DNA of 64,000 bases, taken from the NCBI GenBank assembly GCA_016783745.1, contig JADHVZ010000004.1, positions 3,544 through 67,543 of the forward strand, in the 5' to 3' direction. Shown piece by piece: positions 30,814 through 59,553 of this stretch (position 1 is its first letter; the number at the start of each line of letters is the position of its first letter). Position numbers and translations under genes: made by a program. The notes beneath the pieces were generated by a model. It did no database searches. It was not told the origin of the DNA and saw nothing but the letters and a program-made list of their open reading frames with translations. The stretch is from Candidatus Omnitrophota bacterium (GTDB taxonomy: Bacteria > Omnitrophota > Gorgyraeia > JAHIPI01).

Positions 30814-31845
30814 ATGATGGCATATTTCAAAGGGCAAAAGCGCAGGTTATCGTTTATGGAAAAGTATATGACAGGCTTGAGGCCTGTCGATTGCCCCGTA
30901 TGCGGGAGCGGTAAGTCTACGGTGCTGGGGGCCAGAAGCAGGGGCGGGCTCAGTATAAATTCGGTGCTATGCGCCAACTGTTCGCTGGTGTACCTTAATC
31001 CCAAGCCCTTGCCGGAAAAATACCACGAGTTTTACGCCTCCGGAGACTACAGGCGTTTTTTGAATATTGTCAAGGGAGCAAAAACCGGCGATGATATCAA
31101 CAATTTCTTTACCGAAAAAAAGTTTATTGATAGAAAAGAATATGGCGCGCAAATAGCCAGAAAGTATTTCAGCAATATTTTGGTAAAGGACGACTTATAT
31201 TTCGATTTCGGATGCGATTCCGGCGGCATTATGGCGGGCGTGCGCGATGAAACAGGCTGCAGGATCATGGGTAATGAGCCCTCCAGGCTATGCGCGGATT
31301 TTATCCGCGAAAGACTTGGGGTCCGGATACTTTGCTGTGGCATGGAAGGCATGTGTGATTCCGATAAGGAAATATATAAAGGCAAGGCGAAAGCCGCATC
31401 ACTCATCGGCGTACTGGAACATGTCAATGACCCGATCGCATGTTTGAATATCGCCTATGGGGTACTCTCGGACGGGGGATTCCTCTACGTTGAGAGCCTC
31501 GATATCCTTAAACGCATGGAAAGGAATAAGGAGTCGGTTGAAGATGCGGCAACAATAGATCACCAATATTATTTCCATGAAGACGTGTATAAATATATGC
31601 TGCGATCCTGCAATTTTGAAGTTAAGAGATTCGATTATGACGAAAAAGGCAAGATCATGAGGGTGTTGGCTCAAAAGGTCGGGCCTGAATCGCCTAAAAA
31701 TAGATTTGAAGCAGCAGAAATAGTAGATAGGATCTCGCGGCTGAATAGCGAGGCAGCGCGCTATCAAGCGGGTATTTTCAGAAGGGCCGGAAAGAAGGCG
31801 GCACAAGCGGCAAGAAAGGTGCTAAAGTGGAAGTCACCCTCATAA
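30814..31845 (+). CDS. class I SAM methyltransferase with N-terminal zinc ribbon
   Basis: 'CPVCGSG...CANCS'; 'YFDFGCDSGGIMAGV' is motif I; 'ASLIGVLEHVNDP'. Confidence 0.7.
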   Translation: MMAYFKGQKRRLSFMEKYMTGLRPVDCPVCGSGKSTVLGARSRGGLSINSVLCANCSLVYLNPKPLPEKYHEFYASGDYRRFLNIVKGAKTGDDINNFFTEKKFIDRKEYGAQIARKYFSNILVKDDLYFDFGCDSGGIMAGVRDETGCRIMGNEPSRLCADFIRERLGVRILCCGMEGMCDSDKEIYKGKAKAASLIGVLEHVNDPIACLNIAYGVLSDGGFLYVESLDILKRMERNKESVEDAATIDHQYYFHEDVYKYMLRSCNFEVKRFDYDEKGKIMRVLAQKVGPESPKNRFEAAEIVDRISRLNSEAARYQAGIFRRAGKKAAQAARKVLKWKSPS

Positions 31846-36582: not shown

Positions 36583-38061
36583 ATGAAAGAAAAAATTTTT
36601 AACGCGAAATGTACGTGCCGGAATTGTCCGGCAGCCGATTTTGGCGGGAAATCTGAAAAAGATCAAGGCGGATCAGAGGCCCGCGTCATGGTTGAGTGCA
36701 GGCGCAGGCCGGAGCTCGGTTTCTTTGATCCCACAAACGTTACCTTTGAAAAATGTTCGGAATGGATCAGCACGCCGTACGGCTATTTTTTAAAGGATAT
36801 GCGCGTGATGATCTTAGGCATTGACGGGTATCTGGGCTGGACTCTTGCATTATGGCTCGGCAAACTTGGATGCAAGGTGAGCGGGGTGGATAACTATAAC
36901 AGGCGCAACTGGGTGAAGGAAAGAGGGGCGCATACGGTTGTTCCAATATCGAGGATGACCGAAAGGCTTCACGCAGCGAAAGAGGTGCTGGGCATACATA
37001 TTAATTTCCGCGAGATAGATATCCTTAATAAGTCTTCCTTGAAGGAGTTTATCGATGAGATAAAACCGGAGGCCATAGTCCATTATGCCGAATGCCCAAG
37101 CGCGCCTTACAGCATGATAGACTTTGAGCATGCAAGCCTGGTTCAAACAAACAATGTGATAGGGACGTTGGGTGTTCTTTTCAGTATGCATGAAGTGGTG
37201 CCGGAAACATCGCTCATTAAATTGGGAACGATGGGGGAGTACGGGACGCCGTTATCGGGCAGGCCGCTTTTTGAGGGATTTTTTCCCGAGGACGCGGTCC
37301 TTCACTGGAAGAACCGCAAATGGAGCATGGGCGGGGAATTGACGCCGCGTTATCCCGCGTCTTTCTACCATATTACCAAAGTCCAGGATACCATAAACGT
37401 GCATCAATCCTGCAGGTATTGGCAGCTCCGTTCATATGACGTGATGCAGGGGGTCATATACGGAGTGCACACCGAGCAGGTTGCCGCCGACCCGCGGCTG
37501 CGGACGCGCCTGGATATCGACGAATGGTTCGGGACGGTAGTCAACCGGTATGTCGCTCAGGCGATCATCGGTTTCCCGCTTACGATTTTCGGGGGAGGAG
37601 GCCAGACGCGCGGTTTCATCTCTCTGGAAGACGCTATGCAGTGCATAACCCGGCTCATCGCGAAACCGCCCGCGCCAGGTGAGTACGGCGTGATAAATCA
37701 GATGTCCGGATATTACAACGTGAAGCAGCTTGCCGAAACGGTAGCGAAAATCGGCTCAGAAGAATTCGATTTTGACGTAAAGATCCAGAGGGTGGAGAAC
37801 CCGCGGATAGAGGCAAACAGGCACACCTTTGAGCCGATATTTGACAAATTGCCGGATGAGTTCGGGTTTATTCAAAGCAACACTTTAGAAAATGAAATAA
37901 GGAGGATGTTTAAACTTTTGTCTCAGCCCCATATAAAGAGCAGGATCGAGGAAAAAAGGCATCTTATCATGCCCAGGACGTGGTGGTCGGGCGTAAAGAA
38001 GGAGGTCAAGAGGATCGAGATGCTGAATAACTCAATCCGGGAAACGGTAGCTAAGCAATGA
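36583..38061 (+). CDS. UDP-sulfoquinovose synthase family enzyme (SQD1/SqdB/Agl3-like extended SDR) with about 60-aa Cys-containing N-terminal extension
   Basis: Long collinear similarity to SQD1 as I recall it. 'RVMILGIDGYLGWTLALWL' matches RVMVIGGDGYCGWATALHL; 'CPSAPYSMID' matches QRSAPYSMID; 'NNVIGTLGVLFSMHE', 'LIKLGTMGEYGTP', 'SFYHITKVQD' (YxxxK), 'QGVIYGV', 'GGQTRGFISLEDAMQCI' and 'VENPRIEA' also match. The N-terminus 'KCTCRNCPAADFGG' is extra. Confidence 0.75.
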   Translation: MKEKIFNAKCTCRNCPAADFGGKSEKDQGGSEARVMVECRRRPELGFFDPTNVTFEKCSEWISTPYGYFLKDMRVMILGIDGYLGWTLALWLGKLGCKVSGVDNYNRRNWVKERGAHTVVPISRMTERLHAAKEVLGIHINFREIDILNKSSLKEFIDEIKPEAIVHYAECPSAPYSMIDFEHASLVQTNNVIGTLGVLFSMHEVVPETSLIKLGTMGEYGTPLSGRPLFEGFFPEDAVLHWKNRKWSMGGELTPRYPASFYHITKVQDTINVHQSCRYWQLRSYDVMQGVIYGVHTEQVAADPRLRTRLDIDEWFGTVVNRYVAQAIIGFPLTIFGGGGQTRGFISLEDAMQCITRLIAKPPAPGEYGVINQMSGYYNVKQLAETVAKIGSEEFDFDVKIQRVENPRIEANRHTFEPIFDKLPDEFGFIQSNTLENEIRRMFKLLSQPHIKSRIEEKRHLIMPRTWWSGVKKEVKRIEMLNNSIRETVAKQ

Positions 38062-39185
38062 AAGTCGAATTCTATAAACACAATATCGGTGAAGAAGAGA
38101 AGAGGAAGGCCTTGGAAGTCCTCGATGGCATATTCCTAACTACAGGAAAATACGTAGAGGAGTTCGAAAAGACATTTTCGGATTATCTCGGTGTAGAATT
38201 TGCCGTAGGCGTTTCATCCTGCACGGCTGCGCTTCATCTTGCTCTCATGCATTACGGCATCGGCGCGGGAGACGAAGTCATTACAACACCGCTTACATTT
38301 ATAGCTACGGCAAATGCAATTCTTTATAGCGGAGCAAAACTTGTATTTGTTGATGTTGAAAAAGAGACAGGGTTGATAGATCCCGAAAAGGTGGAAGCTG
38401 CCGTAACGAAGCGCACAAAAGCTATTATACCCGTGCACCTCTACGGGGTGATGGCGGACATGAAAAGGTTGCGTAAAGTCGCCGATAAATACGGATTAAA
38501 AATCATAGAGGATTCAGCGCACTGCATCGAAGGCGAGAGAGACGGCATAAGGCCGGGCGAGTCAGGCGATGCGGCCTGTTTCAGTTTTTACGCGACAAAG
38601 AATATAACAAGCGGAGAAGGCGGCGCGATAACTGTTCACACAAAAGAGGAGAAAGACAGGCTTTACAAATTACGTTCCCACGGCATGTCCAGGGAAGCAT
38701 ACGGCAGATATGAAAGTCTTTACAGGCACTGGGACATGGAGACACTGGGCTGGAAATACAACATGAACAACATACAGGCCGCCCTATTATTAAATCAGAT
38801 CAAGAATGTAGAAAAATATTGGAAAAGAAGAGAAGAGATCTGCCGGCGGTACGAGTCGGCCTTTAAGGATGAGAAAAAGATACGGCTTCTAACCATACCT
38901 CCGCATACAAAGAGCGCGCGGCATCTGATCACGATTTTGGTAGATCCCCAGACAAGGGATGAGATCCTCGCAAAACTCCAAAAAAGGGATATAGGCGTTG
39001 CGGTAAATTTCAGGCCTATACACCTTTTGACATACTATCGGCAGACATACGGCTATAAAATAGGCGCGTTTCCCGCAAGCGAGGAGATAGGGGGCGGGAC
39101 TATCAGCCTACCGCTCTATCCCCAACTCACAGATGAGGAGATCGAATACGTTATCAAATCGGTAAAAGAGGCGATCAGAAAATAG
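38058..39185 (+). CDS. DegT/DnrJ/EryC1/StrS-family PLP-dependent sugar aminotransferase
   Basis: 'GVSSCTAALHLAL...GDEVITTPLTFIATANAI...AIIPVHLYG...EDSAHC...FSFYATKNITSGEGG', with the catalytic Lys in 'ATKN'. Confidence 0.85.
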   Translation: MKVEFYKHNIGEEEKRKALEVLDGIFLTTGKYVEEFEKTFSDYLGVEFAVGVSSCTAALHLALMHYGIGAGDEVITTPLTFIATANAILYSGAKLVFVDVEKETGLIDPEKVEAAVTKRTKAIIPVHLYGVMADMKRLRKVADKYGLKIIEDSAHCIEGERDGIRPGESGDAACFSFYATKNITSGEGGAITVHTKEEKDRLYKLRSHGMSREAYGRYESLYRHWDMETLGWKYNMNNIQAALLLNQIKNVEKYWKRREEICRRYESAFKDEKKIRLLTIPPHTKSARHLITILVDPQTRDEILAKLQKRDIGVAVNFRPIHLLTYYRQTYGYKIGAFPASEEIGGGTISLPLYPQLTDEEIEYVIKSVKEAIRK

Positions 39186-48128: not shown

Positions 48129-49057
48129 TGGAGACAGCGCCTGCGAATATAGGCCGACTCAAAAGTAAGTTCGACGGAAGCGTATCCCTTTTATGCTGGG
48201 CATATAACGAAGAGGCCTCTGTCGGCGATTTTCTCGAAAGGGCGTCGGCCTTGATGGAAGAGGCGGTGGAAGACTATGAGATCGTGATGATAGATGACGG
48301 GAGCACTGACAAGACTTATGAGATCGCCAGAAGTTTTCAGGAAAAAGACCCCCGCTTGAAAATATTCAGAAATGAGAAAAATTCCAATGTGGGTGTTTCG
48401 ATCCCAAAAGCTATAAAGAACGCGTCAAAAGAGTATCTATTCTGGCAGACCGTTGATTGGTGCTACGATATCTCAAATTTGAGGATCTTTCTCGAATATT
48501 TAAAGTCATATGATATTGTTCAGGGGGTAAGGAGAAGGCCGGTAAAAGTAAAGGGTAGATTGATAAAGCCCATAGCGGCGGTTATAAGACTCTTTGGCAT
48601 AAAACATCTGACCAGGCGCTCGGATACGCTGATGAAAGCGGTGATCTCAGTGATCAACTATAGCCTTATAAGAGGTCTTTTTGGGTTGCCCGTATCCGAT
48701 TTTCAAAACGTTACTTTTTACCAGACAAAAATGGTCCGATCTTTGAGATCGGAGGCGAAGAGCGCTTTCACCAATCCGGAGCTCTTGATAAAATCTTATT
48801 GGAAAGGGGCATCCATAAAAGAAGTCCCCATAAGTTTTATACCGAGGACAAAAGGGAAGCCTAAGGGCACGGCTTTGAGATCTGTGGCAAATGCCGTTAA
48901 CGACATACTTAAGCTGCACTTTAGATGGGTGATACTGGGCAGAAGGGATCTCATCCGGCCGGGTAAAGTGCACAGGCTCGATCCGTCTGAGTGGAAAGAA
49001 GGATATGAAGGTATTACTGATAATCCCGCCTACAGACTTGAAGAAGTCTTACGGTAA
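48125..49057 (+). CDS. GT2 polyprenyl-phosphate sugar synthase (DPM1/ArnC/GtrB-like)
   Basis: 'SLLCWAYNEEASVGDFLERA...YEIVMIDDGSTDKTYEIAR' gives the GT2 DxD context in a compact 310-aa DPM1-like architecture. Confidence 0.7.
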   Translation: MMETAPANIGRLKSKFDGSVSLLCWAYNEEASVGDFLERASALMEEAVEDYEIVMIDDGSTDKTYEIARSFQEKDPRLKIFRNEKNSNVGVSIPKAIKNASKEYLFWQTVDWCYDISNLRIFLEYLKSYDIVQGVRRRPVKVKGRLIKPIAAVIRLFGIKHLTRRSDTLMKAVISVINYSLIRGLFGLPVSDFQNVTFYQTKMVRSLRSEAKSAFTNPELLIKSYWKGASIKEVPISFIPRTKGKPKGTALRSVANAVNDILKLHFRWVILGRRDLIRPGKVHRLDPSEWKEGYEGITDNPAYRLEEVLR

Positions 49058-50435
49058 GCTGAGAAAATTTTTAAATCCGCAGCCGTCGATAGGTATCGCT
49101 TATATAGCGGCGGTTTTAAGAAAAAACGGCTATGATGTAAAAATAACCGATGCCTATGTCGATGAAAACGGCATAGAAGAGATCATGGATGCGGTAAAGG
49201 AGTATTCGCCCGGTGTCATCGGCATAAGCGTTTTGACTGCATCTGCGGATGTGGTTTACGAAATATCAAAAACCATACGCGCGAGATTTCCTTATATTAA
49301 AATCGTAATGGGGAATATTCATGCGTCTCTATTTTCAGACGAGATATTATCAAAGGGCTATGCCGATTTCATAGTGCATCGCGAGGGAGAGCTGACTATG
49401 CTTGAGATCCTTCGAATGCTGGAGACCGGCGGAGATGCCGAAGATATAAAAGGCGTGTCCTTTAAAAAAGAAGGCACCGCCGTACATAATCCTATGAGGC
49501 CGTTTATAGCCGAACTCGATGATCTTCCTTATCCGGCGTGGGACTTGTTTCCGCTGGATAAATATTCTACCGACCCAAGGTCCGAGCTGAAAAGGGGCGC
49601 GGTTCCGATGGAATTACTTGTGACCAGAGGTTGCCCGTTTCAGTGCACATTCTGCTCCTCAAGAGAAGATAGAAGCCTTGGCAGTAGATATAGGATGCGG
49701 GATCCTAAAACGGTAGTGAACGAAATGGTCTATATGTACGAGAGGTACGGCAAGGATACCTTCGCATTTATGGATTTGGCATTTCCTCTTGTAAAGGAGC
49801 ACGCATACGGGTTGTGCGATGAGATAATTAATAGGGGATATGGAGAGAGGTTTATTTGGCATACCGAATGCCGCGTTACACCTCTTGACCAGGAACTGCT
49901 TTTTCATATGAGGAAAGCGGGTTGTGTGAGGTTATACCTCGGTATCGAATCCGGCAATGACGAAACCCTTAAGGCACTTAAGAAAAACTGCACGACAGAA
50001 GATGCTAGAAATGCCGTGAAAATGGCCCATGGGGCCGGGATGGAAGTCGACGGGATGTTTATGATAGGCCTGCCGGGCGAGACCGAGGAAATGATAGAGA
50101 AGACCGTTGATTTTGCCATAGAGCTGGATGTAAGATATGCGATCTTTAATCTATTCGTCCCTTAGCCCGGGTGCGAGCTCTGGGATACGTTGCGGGGAGA
50201 AGGCAAAGTTAAATATACGAACTGGAGCGACTTTACCTCGTATCCGACGTATTCTGGCGGCGAGCCGATATATGTCCCTGACGGCATTACCAAAGACAGG
50301 CTTATGGAATTGCAGTCCCGTGCCATGAAAAGGTTTTATGTAAGGCCGAGGTTTATTTTTGATGAGTTCAAAAGGTTTAAAATAGATAAGACGGCGCATT
50401 ATTTGGAAGGGTTGAAAGGTATCCTTTTATGGTGA
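49005..50435 (+). CDS. B12-binding (class B) radical SAM enzyme, paralog 3, interrupted by an in-frame TAG at 50163-50165
   Basis: 'KVLLIIPPTD...IGIAYIAAVLRKNGYDVKI' is the B12 domain, and 'TRGCPFQCTFCSS' is CxxxCxxC. ORF-track pieces 49005-50165 and 50190-50435 are in the same frame, separated only by TAG. The downstream piece 'PGCELWDTL...' continues the conserved 'P-x-PG(T/C)ELW' C-terminal motif. Confidence 0.7.
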
Positions 50436-52561
50436 AAAATAAAGACAAAAAAATATTCTTAATTGTAATCCTAATTTGCCTGATTTTTCTGCCAACATCA
50501 AGGCTGCTTACCACCGGCACCTCAGCCAACTTTCTTATGCAGGCATTGCACCTGGTCAGAGGAGATAAGGATTGGGTCGGCTGTTACGGCACTTTCGGGT
50601 CCCATGCCCTGAAGCCGCCCGGGTATTCGATACTGATGGCCGGAGTTTTTAAGATCGCCGGCATTTCCTTAGAAAGTGTTTTTTACGCAACAAGATTTTT
50701 TTACGGACTGAATGTGCTGGTTGTTTTTCTGCTGGCGAGTGCCCTGTTCGGAACCGGCGCAGGTCTTATAAGCAGCATATTCATTGTCTCATCCTACGCG
50801 ATAAATGACGCGGGGACGTACTTAAATTATGACGTCATAAATCCCTCTCTTATATTATTGAGTATATGGATTTTTATTAAGCAGTTCCGAAGCAATAAAT
50901 TGACGTATTCTTTTTTATCGGGCGTTGTTTTAGGGTCAGCGTATTGGATAAGGGAGTTTACCCTGTTGTTTATACTGTTGCCATGGTGTATATTTTTATT
51001 CAAAAAAGAATTCGGCTTGAAATATGTCATTAAATCCATAGCGGCATTCTATGTCTCCTTTGCTATAGTGATAGCCCCGTGGATGATCTACGTTCTGAAT
51101 AAAGGATTGGGGCCGCTTATGATATTAGGCGGAGGTTCGCCGGAATCGCTCGGCAAGGTTTACGGCAACTCGAACATGATATCTCTTGTCATAAATAAAG
51201 AGATGTTCAAAGGCCTGGCCGAATATTACAGGGATTATTTGAAGCCCAATTTTATTATCGCGCCTCTTATGGTGATCGCCTGGCTATATACAATGGCTTT
51301 AAGTATCATTAAAAGAAACAGAAATGTGATTTTTTTAGGAATATGCGGGGCATTATGCCTGCCTCTATTGATATTTCTCGGCAAGACGGGTGAAAGGCTG
51401 GGGCAGGCCGTGATATTCTTTGATCTGAGCTTTATTGCCGTCGCGTTTATGCTGGTAAACGCTGCCGGCTTGATTTCCTCAAAAGCGGTCATATTGCGGC
51501 GTAAGCGCGTACAGATCTTAGCCATAACGCTTTTAGCTGTTTTAGCTGCCGTTTCCTTGATCGTAAGCCCTAAGATAAGAAAGCGGACAAAGGCGCGCGT
51601 AACTGCCATAAAGAGTTTCTACGTTGACGGAAGATTTAAGATGGAGGGGCGGCTTAATCCTTATGTTAAAGATGCGTGCGAGTGGCTGGTCGCTAATCTG
51701 CCTAAGGGCGATATAGTGTACGTCGACGGCGGGATATGGGAGACTTTTGATTTTTTCACAAGGCTCAATTTTGATAAGAGGTCCATGGAAATAAACGGCG
51801 GTTGGTATAATTTAGCGACAGATACCGTCAAAGCCTCCGCCCTCAAAGGGGGCGATATAATAGGGTTTTGGCCCTCCATGAGCATTAACATGAATACTAA
51901 AAGTAAATACGACAGATATAGAAAAGTGGAATTTATCACTAAAGAACCTATGTACGATTTGCTTCAAAAAGCAATAGACGCTCACGTAGTCGTCTCAAAC
52001 AGGAATAATTTCATAGGCTATTATTTAGAGAGAATGGGCGCGGTCTTAAAATATAAGAATCGCGAGGTGAGGATCTATAGCGGCCTGAAGGATCCCTTAG
52101 GCCTCCGCAATGAGGTATCGTTGATCACGGGTGACTCATTTGTCAGTATTATACCATGGCTCAAGGAGACATATCCGGACGAGTACGGTGATTTTGAGGA
52201 TTTTCTCGGCAGGCAAAACTTGACGTATGACGACTTGCTTGAAAATACCTATAAGAAACATCAGAAGGATTGGATCACTCAAAATATACCCATGGGATCC
52301 AAGATCGCCCTTTCCTGCTGCTGCGAGGTAAAAGATTTTTTTATAACGGACTTTCAGTCCAAACTCTGCAATCAGGATAAACCTCTATCATGGTTTAAAG
52401 AAAGATATGATTTTTTAATCATACATTGGTGCATGCGATATTATAATTCGCTTCCGGGCTTATTCGAAGATATAGAAGGGGAAGATGCCGTGATTTGGTT
52501 TCCGAATAGCCCATACTTAGGAGAAGGGTCAGGGGAGGTGTATAAACTAAAAAGTGAATAA
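50429..52561 (+). CDS. GT-C-fold polytopic membrane glycosyltransferase (ArnT/PMT GT39/GT83-like) with large C-terminal soluble domain
   Basis: 710 aa with about 11-13 hydrophobic helices in the first about 380 aa ('YPGYSILMAGVFKIAG...' loop after TM1). It lies directly downstream of a DPM1-like GT2, the classic ArnC-ArnT / GtrB-GtrC / Dpm1-Pmt pairing. Confidence 0.45.
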   Translation: MVKNKDKKIFLIVILICLIFLPTSRLLTTGTSANFLMQALHLVRGDKDWVGCYGTFGSHALKPPGYSILMAGVFKIAGISLESVFYATRFFYGLNVLVVFLLASALFGTGAGLISSIFIVSSYAINDAGTYLNYDVINPSLILLSIWIFIKQFRSNKLTYSFLSGVVLGSAYWIREFTLLFILLPWCIFLFKKEFGLKYVIKSIAAFYVSFAIVIAPWMIYVLNKGLGPLMILGGGSPESLGKVYGNSNMISLVINKEMFKGLAEYYRDYLKPNFIIAPLMVIAWLYTMALSIIKRNRNVIFLGICGALCLPLLIFLGKTGERLGQAVIFFDLSFIAVAFMLVNAAGLISSKAVILRRKRVQILAITLLAVLAAVSLIVSPKIRKRTKARVTAIKSFYVDGRFKMEGRLNPYVKDACEWLVANLPKGDIVYVDGGIWETFDFFTRLNFDKRSMEINGGWYNLATDTVKASALKGGDIIGFWPSMSINMNTKSKYDRYRKVEFITKEPMYDLLQKAIDAHVVVSNRNNFIGYYLERMGAVLKYKNREVRIYSGLKDPLGLRNEVSLITGDSFVSIIPWLKETYPDEYGDFEDFLGRQNLTYDDLLENTYKKHQKDWITQNIPMGSKIALSCCCEVKDFFITDFQSKLCNQDKPLSWFKERYDFLIIHWCMRYYNSLPGLFEDIEGEDAVIWFPNSPYLGEGSGEVYKLKSE

Positions 52562-53782: not shown

Positions 53783-54916
53783 ATGATTAAACCGCATGGC
53801 GGCAGATTGATAAACCGATACGTTAAAACGGGATCCGTGGCGCCCTTGCGCGGCTTACCGCGTGTACGTTTATCAGAGGTGGCTCTTTCCGACCTTTATA
53901 ATATCGCTGACGGCACATTCAGCCCGTTGACCGGTTTTATGAGGGGCCCCGAGCTCGGCGATGTTATTAACAGGAATAAAGTGAACGGGGTGCCGTGGAC
54001 TATTCCGGTCGTGCTGGACGCGGATAAGGCGGCCGTAAATGGCCTTAAGAAGGGAAAGTCTATCGCGCTTGAAGGCGATGACGGCAAAGTCGTGGCCAGG
54101 ATGGAATTAGAGGACATATATACCCATAAAAAAGACGAATACGCCCTGAAGGTGTTTGGCACCAGGGACCGCAGACATCCCGGAGTGAATCTGGCGTATG
54201 AGATGAAGGAGTATCTTTTGGGCGGAAAGGTGCATGTTTTCAGGAAGCAGGATAACGTAAAGAATTATCTTTCACCGCTTGAGGTCCGTAAGATAATCAC
54301 GGATAAAGGTTACAAGTCTGTTGCGGGCTTCCAGACAAGAAATGTGCTTCACCGCGCCCATGAATACCTGCAGCGCTGCGCGCTGGAACATGTGGACGGA
54401 CTTTTTCTGCAGCCGATCATAGGCTGGAAAAAGAAAGGTGATTTTACCGCGGATGCCATAATCAAGGCATACCGTGAATTTATATCTGACTATTATCCGG
54501 GAAACAGGGTGGTATTCGGGACTTTAAAAACAGCGATGCGTTACGCGGGCCCAAAGGAAGCCGTTTTTCATGCTATAATCAGAAAGAATTTCGGATGCAC
54601 TCATTTTATCGTGGGAAGGGACCATGCCGGTGTGGGCGGCTATTACGGAAAATATGAAGCGCACGATATATTTGATAAGATCGGGGATGTCGGTATCAAT
54701 ATTTTAAAGTTCAAGGAACCGCTTTATTGCAAAAAATGTGATCTGGTCGTAACAGAGAAGACTTGCGGCCACGGCCCCGAATATCACCAGGAGATAAGCG
54801 GTACTTTAGTCAGGAAGATAATCAAGAACGGGCATCAGCCGAAGCATAAGATCTTCAGGCCGGAAGTCTATAAGATATTACTTAAAGAGTTTAAGAGGAA
54901 ACATTTGTTTTATTAA
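53783..54916 (+). CDS. sat: sulfate adenylyltransferase (ATP sulfurylase)
   Basis: 'GFQTRNVLHRAHEYL' is the QTRN/HRAH motif, and 'HFIVGRDHAGVGGYYG' is the GRDHAG motif. Confidence 0.9.
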   Translation: MIKPHGGRLINRYVKTGSVAPLRGLPRVRLSEVALSDLYNIADGTFSPLTGFMRGPELGDVINRNKVNGVPWTIPVVLDADKAAVNGLKKGKSIALEGDDGKVVARMELEDIYTHKKDEYALKVFGTRDRRHPGVNLAYEMKEYLLGGKVHVFRKQDNVKNYLSPLEVRKIITDKGYKSVAGFQTRNVLHRAHEYLQRCALEHVDGLFLQPIIGWKKKGDFTADAIIKAYREFISDYYPGNRVVFGTLKTAMRYAGPKEAVFHAIIRKNFGCTHFIVGRDHAGVGGYYGKYEAHDIFDKIGDVGINILKFKEPLYCKKCDLVVTEKTCGHGPEYHQEISGTLVRKIIKNGHQPKHKIFRPEVYKILLKEFKRKHLFY

Positions 54917-55115
54917 TCATGATAATTAAATCACAAATAACAAGCATCAAATCACAAACAAATAACAATCACCAAATTCCAAATCTCAAACAAGCTGTTT
55001 TGAATTTTGAATTTGATATTTTGAATTTGTTTGTTATTTGTAATTTGTGATTTGTAATTTATTCGTTATTTGTTTGTAATTTGTAATTTCATGCTAATTT
55101 GAAATATACATCGAT
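54917..55115. repeat. about 200-bp intergenic inverted array of degenerate heptamer repeats: left arm A/C-rich (AAATCAC/AAATAAC units), right arm complementary T/G-rich (TTTGTGA/TTTGTAA units), centred near 54995-55000
   Basis: Read directly. Left: aaatcacaaataacaagcatcaaatcacaaacaaataacaatcaccaaattccaaatctcaaacaagc. Right: gttttgaattttgaatttgatattttgaatttgtttgttatttgtaatttgtgatttgtaatttattcgttatttgtttgtaatttgtaatttc. Confidence 0.8.
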
Positions 55116-55133
55116 TTGTTCAAGGGAGAATTT

Positions 55134-56561
55134 ATGAATAAAACTAAAATAGTATGCACAATAGGCCCAAGTTCATGCGAGGTGCCTGTACTTAAGAAAC
55201 TGATCAACGCGGGGATGAACGTTGTCCGGTTGAACGGGTCGCATAACAGCCTGGACTGGCATGAAGCCGTGATCAAGCGCATAAGATCACTGGATAAGAA
55301 CATCTCAATACTTCTTGACCTGCCCGGCAGGAAGATACGGACAAAGGCCTGGGGAAGGTCATTTCACTTCGCTAAGGGGCAGAGGCTTGTATTCACATCG
55401 AGTCAGGACTACAGAGGTGAGGGTAAAATACCCGTAAATCACAGTGAGATCCACCGCGCGCTAAAAAAATCGGATATGATCCTGGCGGAAGACGGAACGC
55501 TGAAATTCAAAGTCGAATCAATCGATGGCCGGGATATACTGTGCAGGGCGCTTTCCACCTGCACGCTGGAAAGCGGGAAGGGCCTGAATATCCCCTCAGT
55601 AAAGCTCGGCGCGGCGGTAGCCACGGAAACAGATAAAAAGCTGATAAGATTTGCCATAAATAAGGGCGTGGATTGGGTCGGTTTATCCTATGTCGAAAAC
55701 GGCGAACAGGTGAGAAAGGTCAAAAGACTACTGGCGGGCAGCGGCATAGGCGTTGTATCGAAAATAGAGAACCAGGCAGCTCTTGAGAATCTCGAGAGCA
55801 TTATAGAGGAATCAGCCGCCCTGATGGTGGACAGAGGAGACCTGGGGGCTGAGATCGGGATCGAGCGCATAAGTTTAGCGCAAAAAGGTGTTATATCCAG
55901 AGGCAATGAATACGGTAAACCTGTAATAGTAGCCACGGAGATGCTTCATTCAATGGTCCATAATCCTCATCCCACAAAGGCTGAGGTCATGGATATAAGC
56001 AATTCCATTCTCGACGGCGCTTCGGCGATCATGCTGTCGGCCGAGACGGCTGTAGGCAAGAACCCCGTAGCCGCCGTGAAGATCATGAGGAGTGTCGCCA
56101 ATGAAGTCGAGAAAGGCCGTTCTATTTACGATAAGGCCATGGTTTCTTTAAAGCGCACTTCAATACCCAACGCCATCGGAAGATCTATCTATGAGATATG
56201 TAAAGAGATGCCCATAGATAAAGTAGTATGCATCACATTTTCGGGTTATGCGGCAAGCATGGTCAGCCGCTACCGCATAGAACCTCCTATTATAGCCGTA
56301 AGCGATAAGCTGGAGAAAACCAGGGCGTTTAATCTGTTGTGGGGGGTGGAAGGGGTACCGCTTAAGATACGATTTTACCGGGACAGGTATGACCATATAC
56401 TGGAGAGCGCGGAAAAACTCTGGAGGGCCGGAAGACTTTCCGGTTCCGACCAGGTCATATTCACCGCAGTATTATTCCCGAAAAAAGGCAATAAGATGAA
56501 TTTTCTCGCGATACATAAAATCAGCGATTTGGAGAGGGTGTTCAAGTGGAAGAAAAAATAG
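55134..56561 (+). CDS. pyruvate kinase family protein (paralog embedded in the glycan locus; start placed at ATG 55134 behind GGGAG)
   Basis: 'KIVCTIGPSS...GMNVVRLNGSHNS...LLDLPGRKIRT...MVDRGDLGAEIGIE...KPVIVATEMLHSMVHNPHPTKAEVMDISNSILDGASAIMLSAETAVGKNPVAAVKIM' are collinear with the canonical PK motifs. Confidence 0.85.
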   Translation: MNKTKIVCTIGPSSCEVPVLKKLINAGMNVVRLNGSHNSLDWHEAVIKRIRSLDKNISILLDLPGRKIRTKAWGRSFHFAKGQRLVFTSSQDYRGEGKIPVNHSEIHRALKKSDMILAEDGTLKFKVESIDGRDILCRALSTCTLESGKGLNIPSVKLGAAVATETDKKLIRFAINKGVDWVGLSYVENGEQVRKVKRLLAGSGIGVVSKIENQAALENLESIIEESAALMVDRGDLGAEIGIERISLAQKGVISRGNEYGKPVIVATEMLHSMVHNPHPTKAEVMDISNSILDGASAIMLSAETAVGKNPVAAVKIMRSVANEVEKGRSIYDKAMVSLKRTSIPNAIGRSIYEICKEMPIDKVVCITFSGYAASMVSRYRIEPPIIAVSDKLEKTRAFNLLWGVEGVPLKIRFYRDRYDHILESAEKLWRAGRLSGSDQVIFTAVLFPKKGNKMNFLAIHKISDLERVFKWKKK

Positions 56562-57715
56562 TCCTTATTTCAAAAGATATTTTAAGAGCAGACTACCTGC
56601 CCGCATACGGTAACAAATACTGGAAGACCCCCAACATCGACGAATTAGCCTGCAAAGGTACCATATTCAGAAGGCATTATGTCTCTTCGCCTTCTACGGG
56701 TATGGGATTCACGTGCATGTTTTCCGGGCTGAATGCCTATGAACTCGAAAGAAAGAGCTTTACCGTGGTCGACGAATTCAAACAGGCCGCCACGCTTTTT
56801 GACTTATTAGTAGAAAAAGGGTATGCCTGCCATGTCTTATGGGATGAATTTTGGTGGGAAAAAATAGGATACCCCTATTCCAAATGTTATGGCCCGAGCA
56901 CCGTCTTTCATAATATAAAGATCGGGCAGATGGTGGGGCCTCATAAGATCGATAAGAGTGAGGTTGCCGAGGGCCAGGGAGAAAAAACAATAGAAAAAAT
57001 CACCGCGGAAGTAGATTCGATAAAGGACGACAAGCTTTTTCTTTGGATCCATTTGCCGCATGTGGTATACGGCCGGACCGCATACGGTTCGGATATAGAC
57101 TTGTTTGACAGATTAGTCGGAGATATCAGGAACAGGTTTTCGGACGGATCTATCTATATTACGGCCGATCACGGCCATATGAATTGCGAGAAGGGGCTGC
57201 CCATATACGGATTCCACGTATATGAGGGAGCGGTCCGGATCCCTTTGATCACGCCGCGAATAGACAATATGGGGGAAGTAAGATTTCCCACGAGTAATAT
57301 ACAATTGAAGGATATAATCTTGAATAAAAAGCTGGCCAGGCCGGATTATGTTTTCTGCGATACGCAGTATTACGCTCAGCCGCACAGAAAATTAGCGGTT
57401 ATAAAAGATAACTATAAGTACATTTACAACAAGTGGGACGGGACAGAAGAGCTGTATGATTGCGAATGGGACAAAAATGAAGATGTAAACCTGCTGAAAA
57501 AGAAGTGGTTTGACCGTGACAGGTTCAGATGGTATCACACAGCGGAGATTTATTTTTACCCCTATTATGAAAAGGCTTACGAATATTACCGCCTTCTCAA
57601 GGCAAAGAAAGATGAGATCTGGAGAAAGAGCGCTTTTTTGGAAGAGGCTATAAATCTTCTCAAGTATCAGGCGAAAGCGTTCTTAAAAAAAATAGAAAAT
57701 ATAAAGAAACGATAA
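56546..57715 (+). CDS. alkaline-phosphatase-superfamily phosphodiesterase/nucleotide pyrophosphatase-like enzyme (NPP type, Thr nucleophile); not a sulfatase
   Basis: 'ISKDILRADYLPAYGN...TPNIDELACKGTIF...SSPSTGMGF' parallels the NPP 'DGFRADYL...TPNLDRL...FPTKTFPNH' pattern, and 'ITADHGHMN' is the distal metal-binding DHG. It lacks the sulfatase C/S-x-P-x-R motif. Confidence 0.55.
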   Translation: MEEKIVLISKDILRADYLPAYGNKYWKTPNIDELACKGTIFRRHYVSSPSTGMGFTCMFSGLNAYELERKSFTVVDEFKQAATLFDLLVEKGYACHVLWDEFWWEKIGYPYSKCYGPSTVFHNIKIGQMVGPHKIDKSEVAEGQGEKTIEKITAEVDSIKDDKLFLWIHLPHVVYGRTAYGSDIDLFDRLVGDIRNRFSDGSIYITADHGHMNCEKGLPIYGFHVYEGAVRIPLITPRIDNMGEVRFPTSNIQLKDIILNKKLARPDYVFCDTQYYAQPHRKLAVIKDNYKYIYNKWDGTEELYDCEWDKNEDVNLLKKKWFDRDRFRWYHTAEIYFYPYYEKAYEYYRLLKAKKDEIWRKSAFLEEAINLLKYQAKAFLKKIENIKKR

Positions 57716-57725
57716 GAGCTAAGAT

Positions 57726-58592
57726 ATGAAAGTAGTCATCCTTACGCACTCTAGTGACAGGCATTATTATTTTTGCAACCGGCTCATAGAAAATGTGAAT
57801 GTCGTAGGAGTTATTTCCGGGGCCAAGACTGTTTATAGTGGATTCGGAGAAAAACTGAGGAAGGCGGTCAGCAAGAATGGATTTAAGTATAAAGCTGGCA
57901 GCATATCATTGAACATATTTTTCAGAAAATACGGAAATCTTTTCAGACAGGAAAAGGAAGCCGCGGAAGAGATGTTTTTCAGTGGAGAGAAAGACGCCTT
58001 TCAGAAAAATTATTCCGGCCTGTTACTTGCTCATGTCGGCTCCCCGCGCCGCTCTATAAACGATAAATATTATATTGATCTCATCCGTCAAAAAAATCCT
58101 GACGTTATCGCGGTGATGGGAACCTGCCTGCTCGGCAAAGAAATTATCTCTTCCGCTCCGCATGCCCTCAATTTGCACACGGGATTAGCCCCATATTACA
58201 GAGGGGACAGCACCAATTTGTGGCCTATCATCGAGGAGGATTTTGGCGTCTTCGGAGCCACTGTTCACAGGATGTCTTTAGGTATCGATTCGGGCGACAT
58301 CATTTTTACGAAGCAGCCCGCGGTTTATCGGGATGATACCTTTGGAAAAATTAACAGCAGATGTATTGAGATCGGGACTGAACGTATGATCAGGGCGATC
58401 AAGGGCCTTGAAAGCGGAAAAGCGACTTTCGTAAAACAGTGGACAAGAGGAAAATTATTCAATAGTCGGGATGTAAACAGCTATACCGCATACAGATACT
58501 TTAAAACAAAAGAAAAATATCTTTCAAGGTATTGCGAGCTTAAGGCAAGCGATCGATTACCCCGGATAAGGACTATCGGCGATGTTTTTTAA
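57726..58592 (+). CDS. formyltransferase-domain protein (sugar N-formyltransferase candidate; Fmt/ArnA N-domain fold)
   Basis: 'ALNLHTGLAPYYRGDSTNLWPIIE...GATVHRMSLGIDSGDII' matches the N10-formyl-THF transferase motif (catalytic N/H...D). Confidence 0.6.
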   Translation: MKVVILTHSSDRHYYFCNRLIENVNVVGVISGAKTVYSGFGEKLRKAVSKNGFKYKAGSISLNIFFRKYGNLFRQEKEAAEEMFFSGEKDAFQKNYSGLLLAHVGSPRRSINDKYYIDLIRQKNPDVIAVMGTCLLGKEIISSAPHALNLHTGLAPYYRGDSTNLWPIIEEDFGVFGATVHRMSLGIDSGDIIFTKQPAVYRDDTFGKINSRCIEIGTERMIRAIKGLESGKATFVKQWTRGKLFNSRDVNSYTAYRYFKTKEKYLSRYCELKASDRLPRIRTIGDVF

Positions 58593-59553
58593 AGTACCAT
58601 CCATGATAAATAGATTACAACGGAGATGGACTTCACATATTTTGCTTTACCATGCGACATTCAGCGAGGTCTCAGAGAATATAGGATCAGAGCTGCATAA
58701 CGTAAGCCCGGATGTCCTTTATAAAGAATTAAAATGGCTTGCCGCTTATTTCGACGCAGTGGATATCGATGATTATTTCCAGGCAGCCGATAAGACCGGA
58801 AAATTCGTCGTTACTTTCGATGACGGCTATAACTCGTTTTTTCAAGAGGGCTTCCCTGTCATCAAGGCTCTGAAGATTCCGTGCGCTGTTTTTTTGTGCG
58901 GCAGCACGATCGACGGTAAAATTTTCTGGCGGGATAAGATCAGATTTTTAATAAGCAACAGCTTAGTCGGTGAATTTTTGGAGTTCTACCGTAGATTTTC
59001 GGATCCGGACCCTCTTTTAAACGAAGCCACTTTTTACAGACGGACAAAAACACCGTCTGTCAATAGCCTCGAGCTGAATACGCTATTAGACAGGTTTTTT
59101 GAAAAGAAACGCATTGATACAAAAAATTTCGAGTATTGTCTCAAAGATAAGAATGATCTGATCAAAGACCCGTTTATAACATACGGGAATCATACGTATG
59201 ATCATTATATTCTATCTTCGCTATCAGAAGAGCAGCAAGAGGACCAGATACGGAAGAACGATGAATTGCTTCGGTCGCTTGGGGTAAGGATGTCCAGGAT
59301 ATTCTCTGTGCCATTCGGAGGCCAAAGAGACTTCAATCAGGCCTCTTGCCGGCTGATGAAGAAATACGGGTATACGGGATTTATGTATTCAAGAGACCGC
59401 ATAAATGTATCAAGAATGACGGGTGTGAGGACGAATTGTTCCCTACCCTCCTTTGAACGCTACATGCCCGCGGGGAACTTTGCGTCTTTCCAAAAACAGC
59501 TGACAAAGATGGCTTTCAAGGGTTTGTGCAGAAAAGTTTTTAAAGAGGGATAA
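58582..59553 (+). CDS. polysaccharide deacetylase (CE4, NodB-homology domain)
   Basis: 'FVVTFDDGYNSFFQEGFPVIKALKIPCAVF' is NodB motif 1 (TFDDG); 'HTYDH' is the His-His metal motif. Confidence 0.7.
   Translation: MFFKVPSMINRLQRRWTSHILLYHATFSEVSENIGSELHNVSPDVLYKELKWLAAYFDAVDIDDYFQAADKTGKFVVTFDDGYNSFFQEGFPVIKALKIPCAVFLCGSTIDGKIFWRDKIRFLISNSLVGEFLEFYRRFSDPDPLLNEATFYRRTKTPSVNSLELNTLLDRFFEKKRIDTKNFEYCLKDKNDLIKDPFITYGNHTYDHYILSSLSEEQQEDQIRKNDELLRSLGVRMSRIFSVPFGGQRDFNQASCRLMKKYGYTGFMYSRDRINVSRMTGVRTNCSLPSFERYMPAGNFASFQKQLTKMAFKGLCRKVFKEG

Follow-up and report, generated by a model that had tools for sequence, protein, structure and literature searches.

A rare pyruvate kinase-family lineage paired with ATP sulfurylase and its possible role in sulfating surface glycans

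Sulfate activation that is situated in a cluster and feeds glycan modification is known from sulfated-glycan and Nod-factor loci. Their PAPS-synthesis sets consist of Sat or CysDN plus CysC, or of a bifunctional SAT/APS kinase (e.g. PDB: 2gks). A dedicated pyruvate kinase (PK) component is not known to us from any such system, nor did the searchable literature show one. PK is a component of in-vitro PAPS generation, where ATP sulfurylase, APS kinase and pyrophosphatase are combined with PK/PEP, which regenerates ATP and removes ADP. The Campylobacter jejuni O-methyl phosphoramidate pathway (Cj1415-Cj1418) combines an APS-kinase homologue with an enzyme from a PEP-handling family.

The window, meaning the whole 64 kb stretch of DNA analysed here, carries a sat gene followed by a PK-family gene within a glycan cluster. 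An earlier note on this DNA had named an ATP sulfurylase, a full-length PK-family protein, an alkaline-phosphatase-superfamily enzyme and a formyltransferase, and these identities hold for four genes on the + strand. They are listed here with the features discussed alongside them:

53783 to 54916, + strand: Sat gene, ATP sulfurylase (sulfate adenylyltransferase of the homo-oligomeric Sat type), 377 aa
54917 to 55133: AT-rich and unusually long spacer that separates sat from the PK gene
55134 to 56561, + strand: Sat-linked PK-clade gene, 475 aa, with A, B and C domains (ORF start at 55116)
56546 to 57715, + strand: AP390, alkaline-phosphatase-superfamily enzyme of sulfatase fold, 389 aa, its start overlapping the PK gene end by 16 bp
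57726 to 58592, + strand: formyltransferase (Pfam: Formyl_trans_N, E 6e-15; also matched in NCBIfam)
58582 to 59553: polysaccharide deacetylase, directly after the formyltransferase
36583 to 38061, + strand: SQD1-like (UDP-sulfoquinovose-synthase-like) SDR with a 72-aa N-terminal extension
38058 to 39185: PseC-like aminotransferase, directly after the SQD1-like gene

The Sat protein has the Pfam domains PUA_2 and ATP-sulfurylase (E 6e-85), scores 460 bits against the NCBIfam model NF003166 (cutoff 387) and aligns with about 55% identity (E 7e-105) to 8a8d, a solved archaeal ATP sulfurylase from M. thermolithotrophicus. It retains all three motifs given below and is predicted to be a genuine ATP sulfurylase.

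54332 to 54343, + strand: Sat motif QTRN
54350 to 54361, + strand: Sat motif HRAH
54614 to 54631, + strand: Sat motif GRDHAG

The PK-family protein matches the PK barrel (E 1e-90) and PK_C in Pfam and reaches 420 bits against TIGR01064 (cutoff 306). Its residues were judged by alignment to the S. aureus and G. stearothermophilus PKs, followed by a comparison of the clade with canonical PKs. The alignment shows that the equivalents of the catalytic residues R72, N74, R119, K206, K269, E271, D295, T327, S361 and E363 are all present, and the earlier note's idea of a neofunctionalised phosphotransferase therefore finds no support at the residue level. The following PK motifs are found:

55227 to 55247, + strand: RLNGSHN
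55317 to 55340, + strand: DLPGRKIR (L113/K117)
55761 to 55772, + strand: KIEN
55830 to 55847, + strand: DRGDLG (clade signature A292D)
55932 to 55955, + strand: ATEMLHSM
55971 to 55985, + strand: PTKAE
56031 to 56051, + strand: MLSAETA

The signature of the clade consists of F75G, K/Q114P, E117K, A292D, Q328E and a change of PTRAE to PTKAE, accompanied by T to A and T to M changes in the effector loop. L113/K117 is the published signature of K+-independent PKs (PMC4284704, PMC8835810). Judged by these residues, the window enzyme would be of the K+-independent type with an altered sugar-phosphate effector loop. The clade shares L113/K117 and an intact catalytic apparatus with the K+-independent (Lys117) PKs, but it has P114 instead of Q114 and differs from them in A292D, F75G, Q328E, PTKAE and the effector loop. 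Its genes, unlike theirs, are accessory, rare and linked to sat. At least 186 relatives were detected in 185,579 species genomes (about 0.1%), scattered across many phyla, and the clade makes up about 30 of 7,860 PK-family representatives. The PK-like protein is a member of a rare, discrete, accessory and previously undescribed kinase lineage.

The 84 loci of the PK clade span more than 10 phyla, with taxa from the Alphaproteobacteria, Omnitrophota, Planctomycetota, Saganbacteria, Acidobacteriota, Gemmatimonadota, Bacteroidota, Chloroflexota, Parcubacteria and others. The sat gene is positioned directly upstream of the PK gene in 68 of these loci and directly downstream in one, usually with a 4-bp overlap. 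The identity matrices of PK and Sat are correlated with r = 0.82, a value matched by none of 999 permutations. Two natural kinase-sulfurylase fusions were detected, P0261 (859 aa) and P0389 (744 aa, without PK_C), each known from a single metagenomic contig; their mutual identity is only about 45% and they are independent of each other. The gene adjacency, the translational coupling, the co-evolution and the two fusions all indicate that Sat and the PK-clade protein work together, probably as a complex. No description of the Sat-PK cassette was found in the searchable literature.

The earlier note had called a PK paralog odd at this place and grouped it with sat. This is borne out, and more strongly than the note assumed, by a pair that stays together in 69 of 84 loci and whose two proteins co-evolve and are in some cases fused. 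Its three-gene sub-module stands as a conserved two-gene core of Sat and PK with a variable third gene, and the formyltransferase does not belong to it. The latter pairs with the deacetylase, outside the sulfate unit, and this formyltransferase-deacetylase pair recurs in another locus (L013) apart from Sat-PK. The four NeuB enzymes noted before are present as four homologues in the window. A role of the PK in handling PEP or pyruvate for them is not supported, as the clade tracks sat and NeuB is found in only 16 clustered loci of the PK clade. The Sat-PK pair seems to be dedicated to the production of sulfated surface sugars.

Like the PAPS-synthesis sets, most Sat-PK loci combine sat with an APS-kinase-like gene (nearby in 58 of the 84 loci), and some also carry PF00685 sulfotransferases and CysQ. 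The cassette differs from these sets by its integral, co-evolving and sometimes fused PK-clade component, and the version in the window has no APS kinase. Those loci that contain an APS kinase encode the in-vitro PAPS cocktail as an operon. The assay is a laboratory device with a housekeeping PK, whereas Sat-PK is natural, horizontally spread and equipped with its own PK lineage, and its PK is tied to Sat and not to the ADP-producing kinase. The C. jejuni pathway is comparable in that a tetrahedral oxyanion is activated on a nucleotide within a capsule cluster. Its substrates are CTP and phosphoramidate, and its nucleotidyltransferase and glutamine kinase are unrelated enzymes, whereas the sulfate site of Sat is canonical and genes for sulfotransferase, CysQ and TauE occur in the Sat-PK loci.

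In related loci, PF00685 sulfotransferase, CysQ-like and TauE genes directly adjoin the cassette, and on a Komagataeibacter plasmid a sulfotransferase gene overlaps a clade pyk gene. In the 64 kb of the window, tblastn found no homologue of APS kinase, PF00685-type sulfotransferase, CysQ or TauE, and none of the called genes bears a PAPS_reduct label from Pfam, as the earlier note had observed for APS kinase, reductase and sulfotransferase. This result holds for the window, and with one contig covered, a housekeeping cysC may lie elsewhere in the genome. Of 8 loci that lack an APS kinase and have full flanks, 7 contain a TagF-like or AP390 gene, compared to 4 of about 58 loci with APS kinase, an association that represents about four independent lineages. 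Neither these APS-kinase-less TagF-like or AP390 loci nor the window contain a TagD-like CDP-glycerol synthase. In six loci the cassette has as its direct neighbour a member of a second cytoplasmic sulfatase-fold family, which has an S-T motif and a length of about 550 aa. Within 8 kb, about two thirds of the loci have no recognisable transferase candidate.

AP390 matches the Pfam Sulfatase family with E 2e-15 and stays with 21.9 bits under the cutoff of 23 for Phosphodiest. Its AF2 model (pLDDT 93) has S1 sulfatases and phosphonate monoester hydrolases (PMH) as best fold matches, and NPP is absent among the top 50. The earlier assignment as an NPP-type phosphodiesterase was therefore rejected. 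The Thr nucleophile noted before is supported, with a hydroxyl residue at or beside the formylglycine position: T51 aligns with the formylglycine Cys of 4upl, and in the family alignment column 51 is T in 26 of 41 sequences, S in 15 and C in none, while column 50 holds S in 38 sequences and T in the other 3. The residues concerned are positioned as follows:

56570 to 56578 (region), + strand: D11, candidate metal ligand
56687 to 56701, + strand: SPSTG, with Ser50-Thr51 at the formylglycine position
57164 to 57178, + strand: ADHGH, with D208-H209 as candidate metal ligands

The best sequence and fold matches are formylglycine sulfatases and PMH (4upl, 9fo1, arylsulfatase A), and the Asp that serves as metal ligand is conserved in AP390, as is the Asp-His pair. 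It differs from them in that the C/S-x-P/A-x-R motif is missing, with Ser-Thr in place of formylglycine and the Arg lost, and it is about 100 residues shorter and stands in a biosynthetic context. With no signal peptide, transmembrane segment or hydrophobic window in its sequence, AP390 is predicted to be a cytoplasmic enzyme. The Thr-nucleophile transferases of the alkaline-phosphatase superfamily (the phosphoethanolamine transferases EptA/MCR-1, and LtaS) have an S-T-A-like motif, and AP390 resembles them in its hydroxyl nucleophile; for both, a ping-pong transfer of a charged substituent to a glycan would be expected. These transferases are membrane-anchored, extracytoplasmic and use lipid donors, whereas AP390 is soluble and adjoins nucleotide-activating enzymes (Sat here, a TagD-like enzyme in locus L099), and they are not among the top fold matches of its model.

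We propose, with about even confidence, that the region is a PEP-fed sulfate-activation-and-transfer unit which decorates the glycan of the cluster with sulfate. The formation of APS and PPi from ATP and sulfate by Sat is the well supported step. The PK-clade enzyme would still convert PEP and ADP to ATP and pyruvate and act as the private ATP source of Sat. In this way the intrinsically unfavourable Sat reaction would be fed by PEP with its high phosphoryl potential, and the mobile glycan island would be self-sufficient. Such an ATP supply is thermodynamically meaningful only with channelling of ATP, as a private PK otherwise adds little to bulk ATP. Since Sat makes no ADP, PK and Sat do not form a closed cycle. 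More tentatively, the adjacent AP390 may transfer sulfate at the APS level, because the window and its closest relatives have no APS kinase or PAPS-type sulfotransferase. The sulfuryl group of APS would move to its Ser/Thr as AMP leaves, and from there to a sugar hydroxyl; AP390 relatives presumably carry out the same chemistry on CDP-glycerol. The role of AP390 might be taken by a TagF-like transferase in other loci without APS kinase.

For the kinase, two other readings have to be weighed. A housekeeping pyruvate kinase caught by chance in the glycan island would fit the passed curated model and the retained catalytic residues, with this contig as the part of the genome covered, but the scattered presence of the clade in about 0.1% of species genomes, the changed effector loop and one MAG carrying the cassette twice (L018 and L024) make this hardly credible, and the adjacency to sat, the co-evolution and the fusions effectively exclude an incidental co-location. 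It is rather improbable that the enzyme has been neofunctionalised to use a sulfonucleotide in place of ADP, taking both variants of this reading together. The kinase would either provide a PEP-dependent PAP salvage step (PAP to 3'-phospho-ADP to 3'-phospho-ATP to PAPS), in which Sat and the divergent APS-kinase-like protein would accept 3'-phosphorylated substrates, or phosphorylate APS in a PEP-dependent way. The clade differs from canonical PKs in the second shell at A292D, Q328E, P116R, F75G and R to E in SFVR, as well as in the effector loop, and the substitutions other than F75G could have changed the substrate. Its direct linkage to sulfotransferase genes besides Sat and the fusion of PK to Sat, which suits consecutive steps, point the same way. 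So do the APS-kinase-like proteins of related loci, which depart from canonical CysC in the APS-binding motifs (FISP to AALY, KAR to NAI) and score just under the TIGR00455 cutoff. Against this, every residue that serves to bind PEP, to protonate the enolate or to bind the NDP phosphate is retained, Sat is very near to a characterised ATP-using enzyme, and CysQ-like PAP phosphatases stand beside the cassette in some loci. The three-enzyme PAP cycle cannot run in the window because its subclade has no APS-kinase-like gene, and we know of no PK-family member using acceptors such as APS, PAP or 3'-phospho-ADP.

For the fate of the sulfate, the sulfation proposed above competes with a less probable but serious reading, in which AP390 is unrelated to sulfate and is a cytoplasmic phospho-alcohol (e.g. 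glycerol-phosphate) transferase or a glycan-pathway phosphatase. Its position after Sat-PK would then reflect cluster packing, and the transfer of sulfate would fall to an enzyme not recognised as such or to a PAPS route encoded elsewhere in the genome. A 62%-identical relative directly follows the TagD-like CDP-glycerol synthase (glycerol-3-phosphate cytidylyltransferase) gene in locus L099 with no Sat or PK nearby; this suggests a transferase role for AP390 and points to a phospho-alcohol donor, so that AP390 may add glycerol phosphate or act as a phosphatase. A further relative in Marinifilum also has neither Sat nor PK nearby, most of the 1,018 family matches have no Sat linkage, the order Sat-PK-AP390 occurs in only two loci, and the nucleophile motif S-T-A resembles that of phosphoethanolamine transferases. 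However, a CDP-glycerol synthase is missing from the window, the AP390 gene overlaps the PK gene end, and an orthologue holds the same place after Sat-PK in a different phylum, the Planctomycetota. Also in favour of sulfate are the second S-T family beside the cassette, which is unrelated in sequence, and the closest fold, that of sulfate-ester enzymes. Formylglycine-to-Ser sulfatase mutants trap a sulfo-enzyme, as a ping-pong sulfotransferase needs; the PDB entries 1e1z and 1n2k are among the AP390 fold matches. Still less probable, and clearly unlikely, is that APS is made for sulfite which supplies the SQD1-like enzyme 17 kb upstream for a sulfoquinovose-type sugar instead of O-sulfation. 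The SQD1-like gene pointed out earlier does encode a genuine SQD1 homologue (E 2e-81 to 1i24) in the same co-directional cluster, and the window has no recognisable sulfotransferase. Yet the window also has no APS/PAPS reductase, and none of the other Sat-PK loci examined has an SQD1-like gene; they carry sulfotransferases, CysQ and TauE instead. The homologue may not use sulfite, because it stays with 429 bits under the NCBIfam UDP-sulfoquinovose synthase equivalog cutoff of 575 and is followed by an aminotransferase.

The long spacer downstream of sat contains an imperfect palindrome of about 135 nt with 66-nt arms (54927 to 54992 and 54996 to 55061) of 74% complementarity. Its predicted RNA fold has -44.2 kcal/mol (z = -2.8) and the motif occurs once in the window. 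Several independent assemblies terminate within this palindrome. Related loci show either a 4-bp overlap of sat with the PK gene or a gap of 10-20 bp.

The window carries one long co-directional glycan-biosynthesis cluster, in which gene calls and family labels identify four NeuB homologues, several CMP-sugar synthetases and many methyltransferases and radical SAM (rSAM) enzymes. ORF calling and family matches at 53783-58592 returned exactly the genes and the order that the earlier note had read from the sequence:

53783-54916, + strand: ATP sulfurylase (Sat, gene sat)
55134-56561, + strand: full-length pyruvate kinase (PK) family protein, as the gene was called (the PK-like protein)
56546-57715, + strand: alkaline-phosphatase-superfamily protein of 389 aa (AP390), its start overlapping the end of the PK gene by 16 bp
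57726-58592, + strand: formyltransferase

By its sequence, Sat is a conventional enzyme. It contains the PUA_2 (E 9e-43) and ATP-sulfurylase (PF01747 family, E 6e-85) Pfam domains and scores above the curated NCBIfam cutoffs of NF003166 (460 bits against 387) and TIGR00339 (343 against 323). The motifs QTRN (residue 184), HRAH (190) and GRDHAG (278) are intact and align with the same motifs in 8a8d and 1v47. Since Sat is about 55% identical (E 7e-105) to 8a8d, the ATP sulfurylase of Methanothermococcus thermolithotrophicus, which is characterised by structure and biochemistry, it probably catalyses the reaction of ATP and sulfate to APS and PPi.

The PK-like protein has the PK (Pfam: PF00224, E 1e-90) and PK_C (Pfam: PF02887, E 3e-16) domains and reaches 420 bits with TIGR01064, the cutoff of which is 306. 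The earlier note had singled out its active-site residues for alignment, and every one of them is present. The catalytic and substrate residues, in rabbit numbering with the window counterpart in brackets, are R72 (R32), N74 (N34), S76 (S36), D112 (D62), R119 (R69), K206 (K149), K269 (K210), E271 (E212), D295 (D236), T327 (T268), S361 (S302) and E363 (E304); they include the enolpyruvate-protonating Thr together with the Arg and Lys by which the nucleotide phosphates are bound, and are invariant or near-invariant in the lineage of Sat-linked PKs, here called the clade. The protein also carries Leu113/Lys117, the published signature of K+-independent pyruvate kinases (PMC4284704, PMC8835810).

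Around this kept core the clade is changed at second-shell active-site positions (F75G, A292D, Q328E, usually P116R, and R to E in SFVR) and in the phosphate-binding effector loop of the C domain, where SGxTA becomes SGYAA, together with a T to M change. All of the best 120 matches differ from canonical PKs in having RLNGSH for RLNFSHG, D[IL]PGxK[IV]R for DTKGPEIR/DLQGPKIR, xxDRGDL for xxARGDL, ATEMLH for ATQMLES and PTKAE for PTRAE. None of the curated NCBIfam and Pfam models separates the clade from other PKs. Three near-clade PK-family proteins of about 560-570 aa (P0266, P0271 and P0272) have an N-terminal winged-helix DNA-binding domain of the MarR/IclR type.

We define the Sat-linked PK cassette as a PK with the clade signature (xxDRGDL, RLNGSH, D[IL]PGxK[IV]R, PTKAE) directly adjoining sat on the same strand in a glycan locus. 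The window has MVDRGDLG, RLNGSHN, DLPGRKIR and PTKAE, with sat upstream on the same strand and an atypical spacer of 217 bp (54917-55133); in related loci sat and the PK gene share 4 bp or are separated by 10-20 bp. The spacer is AT-rich and contains an imperfect palindrome of about 135 nt (arms 54927-54992 and 54996-55061), found once in the window, and several independent Logan assemblies terminate within it. It could be an inserted element, a hairpin for RNA processing or stability, or an internal terminator or promoter.

The closest relatives of the PK-like protein (58-65% identity) come from a Saganbacteria MAG, a Planctomycetota MAG and an unassigned contig; in each, sat lies directly 5' of the kinase, and all are in glycan clusters. 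The next tier (44-48% identity) has the same pair with a small APS-kinase-like gene alongside. We then surveyed 84 loci, comprising the window, 80 genome loci and 3 metagenome loci, by ORF calling and phmmer search.

Position of sat and presence of an APS-kinase-like gene in the 84 loci
sat directly upstream of the kinase, same strand: 68/84
sat directly downstream of the kinase: 1/84
sat not adjoining the kinase: 15/84
APS-kinase-like gene in the flanks: 58/84

The upstream arrangement mostly shows the 4-bp overlap typical of translational coupling, and in 7 of the 15 loci without an adjoining sat there are sulfotransferase, CysQ-like (PAP phosphatase) or TauE genes close by. Pairwise identity among the kinases correlates with that among their partner sulfurylases (r = 0.82), a value that none of 999 permutations reached and that is due in part to the shared ancestry of the hosts. 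The distribution is patchy, so the pair is inherited and transferred as a unit. Two natural fusions were found in the PK-family library: P0261 (859 aa) with PK barrel, PK_C, PUA_2 and ATP-sulfurylase, and P0389 (744 aa) with a PK barrel lacking the C domain, followed by Sat. Both have the DRGDL signature and one contig is known for each; as they are only about 45% identical and differ in architecture, they are fusions that evolved independently and not one sequencing error. The conserved linkage of Sat and PK is solid. On a plasmid of Komagataeibacter xylinus, an annotated sulfotransferase gene overlaps a truncated pyk gene of the clade.

The lineage is rare. A search of 5.8 billion proteins with the PK-like protein found ten relatives that are 55-65% identical to it, while the thousands that come next do not exceed 48%, and the clade signature occurs in about 30 clusters of 7,860 PK-family representatives (library of 1.84 billion representatives). 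A pattern scan with two clade-specific peptides identified at least 186 relatives in 185,579 species genomes (one genome per species), in Alphaproteobacteria, Omnitrophota, Planctomycetota, Acidobacteriota, Gemmatimonadota, Bacteroidota, Chloroflexota, Actinomycetota, Parcubacteria and one Methanosarcinales MAG. A few carriers are cultured, namely BAL199, Stappia sediminis, Hongsoonwoonella zoysiae and Caballeronia. The alphaproteobacterial MAG JAJFGG01 (OFTM58) has two APS-kinase/Sat/PK cassettes (L018 and L024), which lie on separate contigs and in different glycan loci.

The earlier note had considered that the PK might be a housekeeping gene whose place beside sat is incidental. This is contradicted by the rarity and the scatter over phyla, by sat adjoining the kinase in 69 of 84 loci, by the correlation and by the fusions, and the altered effector loop likewise does not fit a housekeeping glycolytic PK. 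Its proposal that the kinase handles PEP or pyruvate for the NeuB enzymes was also dropped, because the clade goes with sat and not with NeuB. Cluster-situated sulfate-activation genes are well known, as are K+-independent PKs; a literature search found nothing relevant on a Sat-PK link or on a PK lineage dedicated to ATP sulfurylase. New here is a cassette for sulfate activation of which a co-evolving PK is an integral part, and whose mechanism we infer.

In the simplest reading, the PK-like enzyme would still make ATP from PEP and ADP, would no longer be regulated like the glycolytic PK, and would pass its ATP to Sat; we regard this as close to an even chance. The PK-to-Sat fusions fit it, since ATP is the metabolite common to both enzymes. 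The cassette with APS kinase has the same three enzymes as the laboratory cocktail that drives PAPS synthesis, in which PK also removes ADP, an inhibitor of APS kinase. Three points call for caution about the ATP-supply role: a private PK helps thermodynamically only if its ATP is channelled, Sat returns no ADP, and the enzyme could, given its second-shell changes, have come to use another acceptor. The PK-like enzyme may instead, though we consider this unlikely, be neofunctionalised towards a sulfonucleotide, for example in a salvage cycle from PAP through 3'-phospho-ADP and 3'-phospho-ATP to PAPS. Such a cycle would also account for the divergent APS-kinase-like partner. That partner had further raised the activation of phosphoramidate or another phosphate analogue (MeOPN-like). 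With a canonical Sat, and with sulfotransferase, CysQ and TauE genes in the company of the cassette, this was dropped as the main reading.

The APS-kinase-like proteins of the cassette (e.g. L015:9693-10214 and L016:6395-6928) differ from canonical CysC at the APS-binding motifs, with LDGDNVR changed to LDGDVIR, FISP to AALY and KAR to NAI. They pass the PRK05541 subfamily model only and fall just under the TIGR00455 cutoff. Upstream of the cassette, locus L016 also has a separate HTH_24 gene and a NusG paralogue.

The canonical PAPS pathway of Sat, APS kinase, PAPS sulfotransferase and CysQ is incomplete in the window, while many related loci do have its partner genes. Queried with sequences from the cassettes and with E. 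coli CysC, tblastn found no homologues of APS kinase, PF00685-type sulfotransferase, CysQ or TauE in the 64 kb, nor could a PF13469 sulfotransferase or a PAP phosphatase of this pathway be detected by tblastn there; no called gene of the window bears a PAPS-reductase family label. The statement of the earlier note that APS kinase, reductase and sulfotransferase are not visible thus holds for the whole window. A match of the APS-kinase query in a 710-aa PMT_2 protein (51998-52180, E 0.003, tblastn) was judged to be chance, as the region has no P-loop.

Families directly beside the cassette (same strand, within 200 bp) in the related loci
TagF-like glycerophosphotransferase homologues: 6 loci
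Cytoplasmic sulfatase-fold family of about 550 aa with conserved Q-S-T motif: 6 loci
PF00685 sulfotransferases: 5 loci
AP390 family: 2 loci
CysQ-like phosphatases: 3 loci
TauE/SafE-type anion permeases: 4 loci
CPA2 transporters: 7 loci

It seems likely that a transport function is tied to sulfate activation. A CPA2-type cation/proton antiporter homologue (Na_H_Exchanger) occurs in 14 loci altogether (L010, L031, L041, L043, L044, L048, L050, L060, L067, L071, L076, L086, L090 and L092). In about two thirds of the loci, no candidate for sulfuryl transfer can be recognised within 8 kb.

AP390 had been described as an NPP-type phosphodiesterase, an assignment that did not survive. Its match to the NPP/type I phosphodiesterase family (PF01663) reaches 21.9 bits, under the cutoff of 23, and covers residues 6-63 only, and no NPP fold is among the top 50 PDB fold matches of its AF2 model (pLDDT 93). 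All 50 are S1 sulfatases or phosphonate monoester hydrolases (probability 1.0, TM about 0.6), and the best sequence matches are likewise arylsulfatase and phosphonate-monoester-hydrolase family members, e.g. 4upl. The metal ligands are kept, with D11 near-invariant and D208-H209 invariant in the family alignment, and no signal peptide or membrane segment was found. At the formylglycine (FGly) position the family has Thr in 26 of 41 members, Ser in 15 and Cys in none, just after a near-invariant Ser. The S1 maturation motif C/S-x-P/A-x-R is replaced by S-P-S-T-G-M-G-F in the window, and the family lacks P/A at +2 and R at +4. AP390 can therefore not be an FGly sulfatase. The pairing of such a sulfatase with an anaerobic maturase, suggested by an rSAM/SPASM gene after the Planctomycetota AP390 orthologue, was rejected since the motif cannot be matured.

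The AP390 family has 1,018 matches, mostly without sat linkage. In another glycan cluster, a 62%-identical member lies directly 3' of a gene for a TagD-like glycerol-3-phosphate cytidylyltransferase. TagD and Sat belong to one nucleotidyltransferase superfamily and carry out analogous chemistry, in which NTP and X-O3 give NMP-X and PPi. From this neighbour and this analogy, the members of the family appear to be cytoplasmic transferases, with an NMP-activated donor from which they would take over a charged group. A sulfatase with Ser in place of FGly becomes stably sulfated, which is what a ping-pong sulfotransferase would need, and structures that we take to be such FGly-to-Ser sulfatases stand among the fold matches of the AP390 model. 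The second cytoplasmic sulfatase-fold family (about 530-560 aa, no TM segment, conserved N-A-Q-S-T-Q and G-D-H-G motifs) was found within 8 kb of the cassette in 10 loci (L021, L025, L041, L044, L048, L055, L060, L063, L072 and L086; e.g. L041:9431-11089), with three copies in one locus; these proteins are candidates for sulfuryl transfer or for editing.

A TagF-like or AP390 gene is present in 7 of the 8 full-flank Sat-PK loci without APS kinase, against 4 of about 58 loci with it; the eight loci represent about four independent lineages, and their genomes may have a housekeeping cysC elsewhere. Neither the APS-kinase-less loci with TagF-like or AP390 genes nor the 64-kb window encodes a TagD-like CDP-glycerol synthase. 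This suggests two flavours of the cassette, one for PAPS with APS kinase and a classical sulfotransferase and one for APS, in which enzymes that normally expel NMP from an NDP-alcohol would instead expel AMP from APS. That the AP390 of the window is such an APS-level sulfotransferase is a tentative proposal, to which we give rather low probability; about the same weight goes to an ordinary phospho-alcohol transferase or phosphatase. The full picture, of Sat-PK as a physically coupled, PEP-driven sulfate-activating machine and of the Ser/Thr sulfatase-fold families (390 and 550 aa), possibly with the TagF-like proteins, as unrecognised sulfotransferases acting through a covalent sulfo-enzyme from APS or PAPS, is doubtful, and its probability is likewise rather low. 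If true, sulfatases run as transferases would make APS-level glycan sulfation possible without APS kinase. The literature search found nothing relevant on an APS-dependent sulfotransferase or on sulfatase-fold or TagF-fold sulfotransferases, and the extension to new sulfotransferase families is plausible but unproven.

Sulfate activation is thermodynamically among the hardest steps of sulfur metabolism, and three ways of driving it are known: GTP hydrolysis (CysDN), APS kinase and pyrophosphatase. A PK lineage that travels, co-evolves and is sometimes fused with ATP sulfurylase would be a fourth, PEP-powered solution. The linkage is surprising for sulfur metabolism and glycobiology and is directly testable in the cultured carriers. 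As a simple genomic marker, the cassette would predict sulfated capsules or exopolysaccharides in uncultured bacteria, among them Omnitrophota, Saganbacteria, Parcubacteria and many Alphaproteobacteria of marine and fresh waters. Its variable neighbours are candidates for new sulfotransferase families of sulfatase or TagF fold, which could serve in enzymatic sulfation provided that APS is their donor, and a natural ATP-regenerating PAPS/APS operon would be directly relevant to biotechnological PAPS supply.

The homologue of SQD1 (UDP-sulfoquinovose synthase) at 36583-38061 is genuine (E 2e-81 to SQD1), scores under the equivalog cutoff and has a 72-aa N-terminal extension. Directly 3' of it, in the 36583-39185 region, lies a PseC-like aminotransferase gene, and the two suggest a sulfo- or amino-modified 6-deoxy sugar. 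Because the window encodes no sulfite-forming enzyme, and an SQD1-like gene is in no other Sat-PK locus examined, the cassette as a family serves something other than sulfoquinovose synthesis.

The short formyltransferase gene is followed by a polysaccharide-deacetylase-family gene, a pair that recurs (window 57726-59553 and L013:12788-14403) and suggests a conserved step of de-N-acetylation and N-formylation on an amino sugar.

Three B12-binding radical SAM genes are located in the window, at 31827-34744 and 49005-50165. The last, with a reading frame of 49005-50435, has a single in-frame amber TAG (50163-50165) inside the conserved P-x-PG motif (FNLFVP*PGCELW), after which the frame continues for 81 codons; at least three independent assemblies have a gene call for the same truncated protein of 386 aa. 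As 10 other genes of the window end normally at TAG, the amber codon points to a pseudogene, a split gene or local read-through and not to a code change. Three paralogous rSAM/SPASM genes belong to the one glycan cluster, at 14091-15086, at 17592-18626 and on the contig beyond 63380 (L001:18247-19218), and two of them directly adjoin NeuB paralogues. An identity as anaerobic sulfatase maturases was rejected, given this number and placement and scores far under the maturase model. The rSAM set may be a sign that nonulosonic acids are C-methylated or epimerised in an unusual way.
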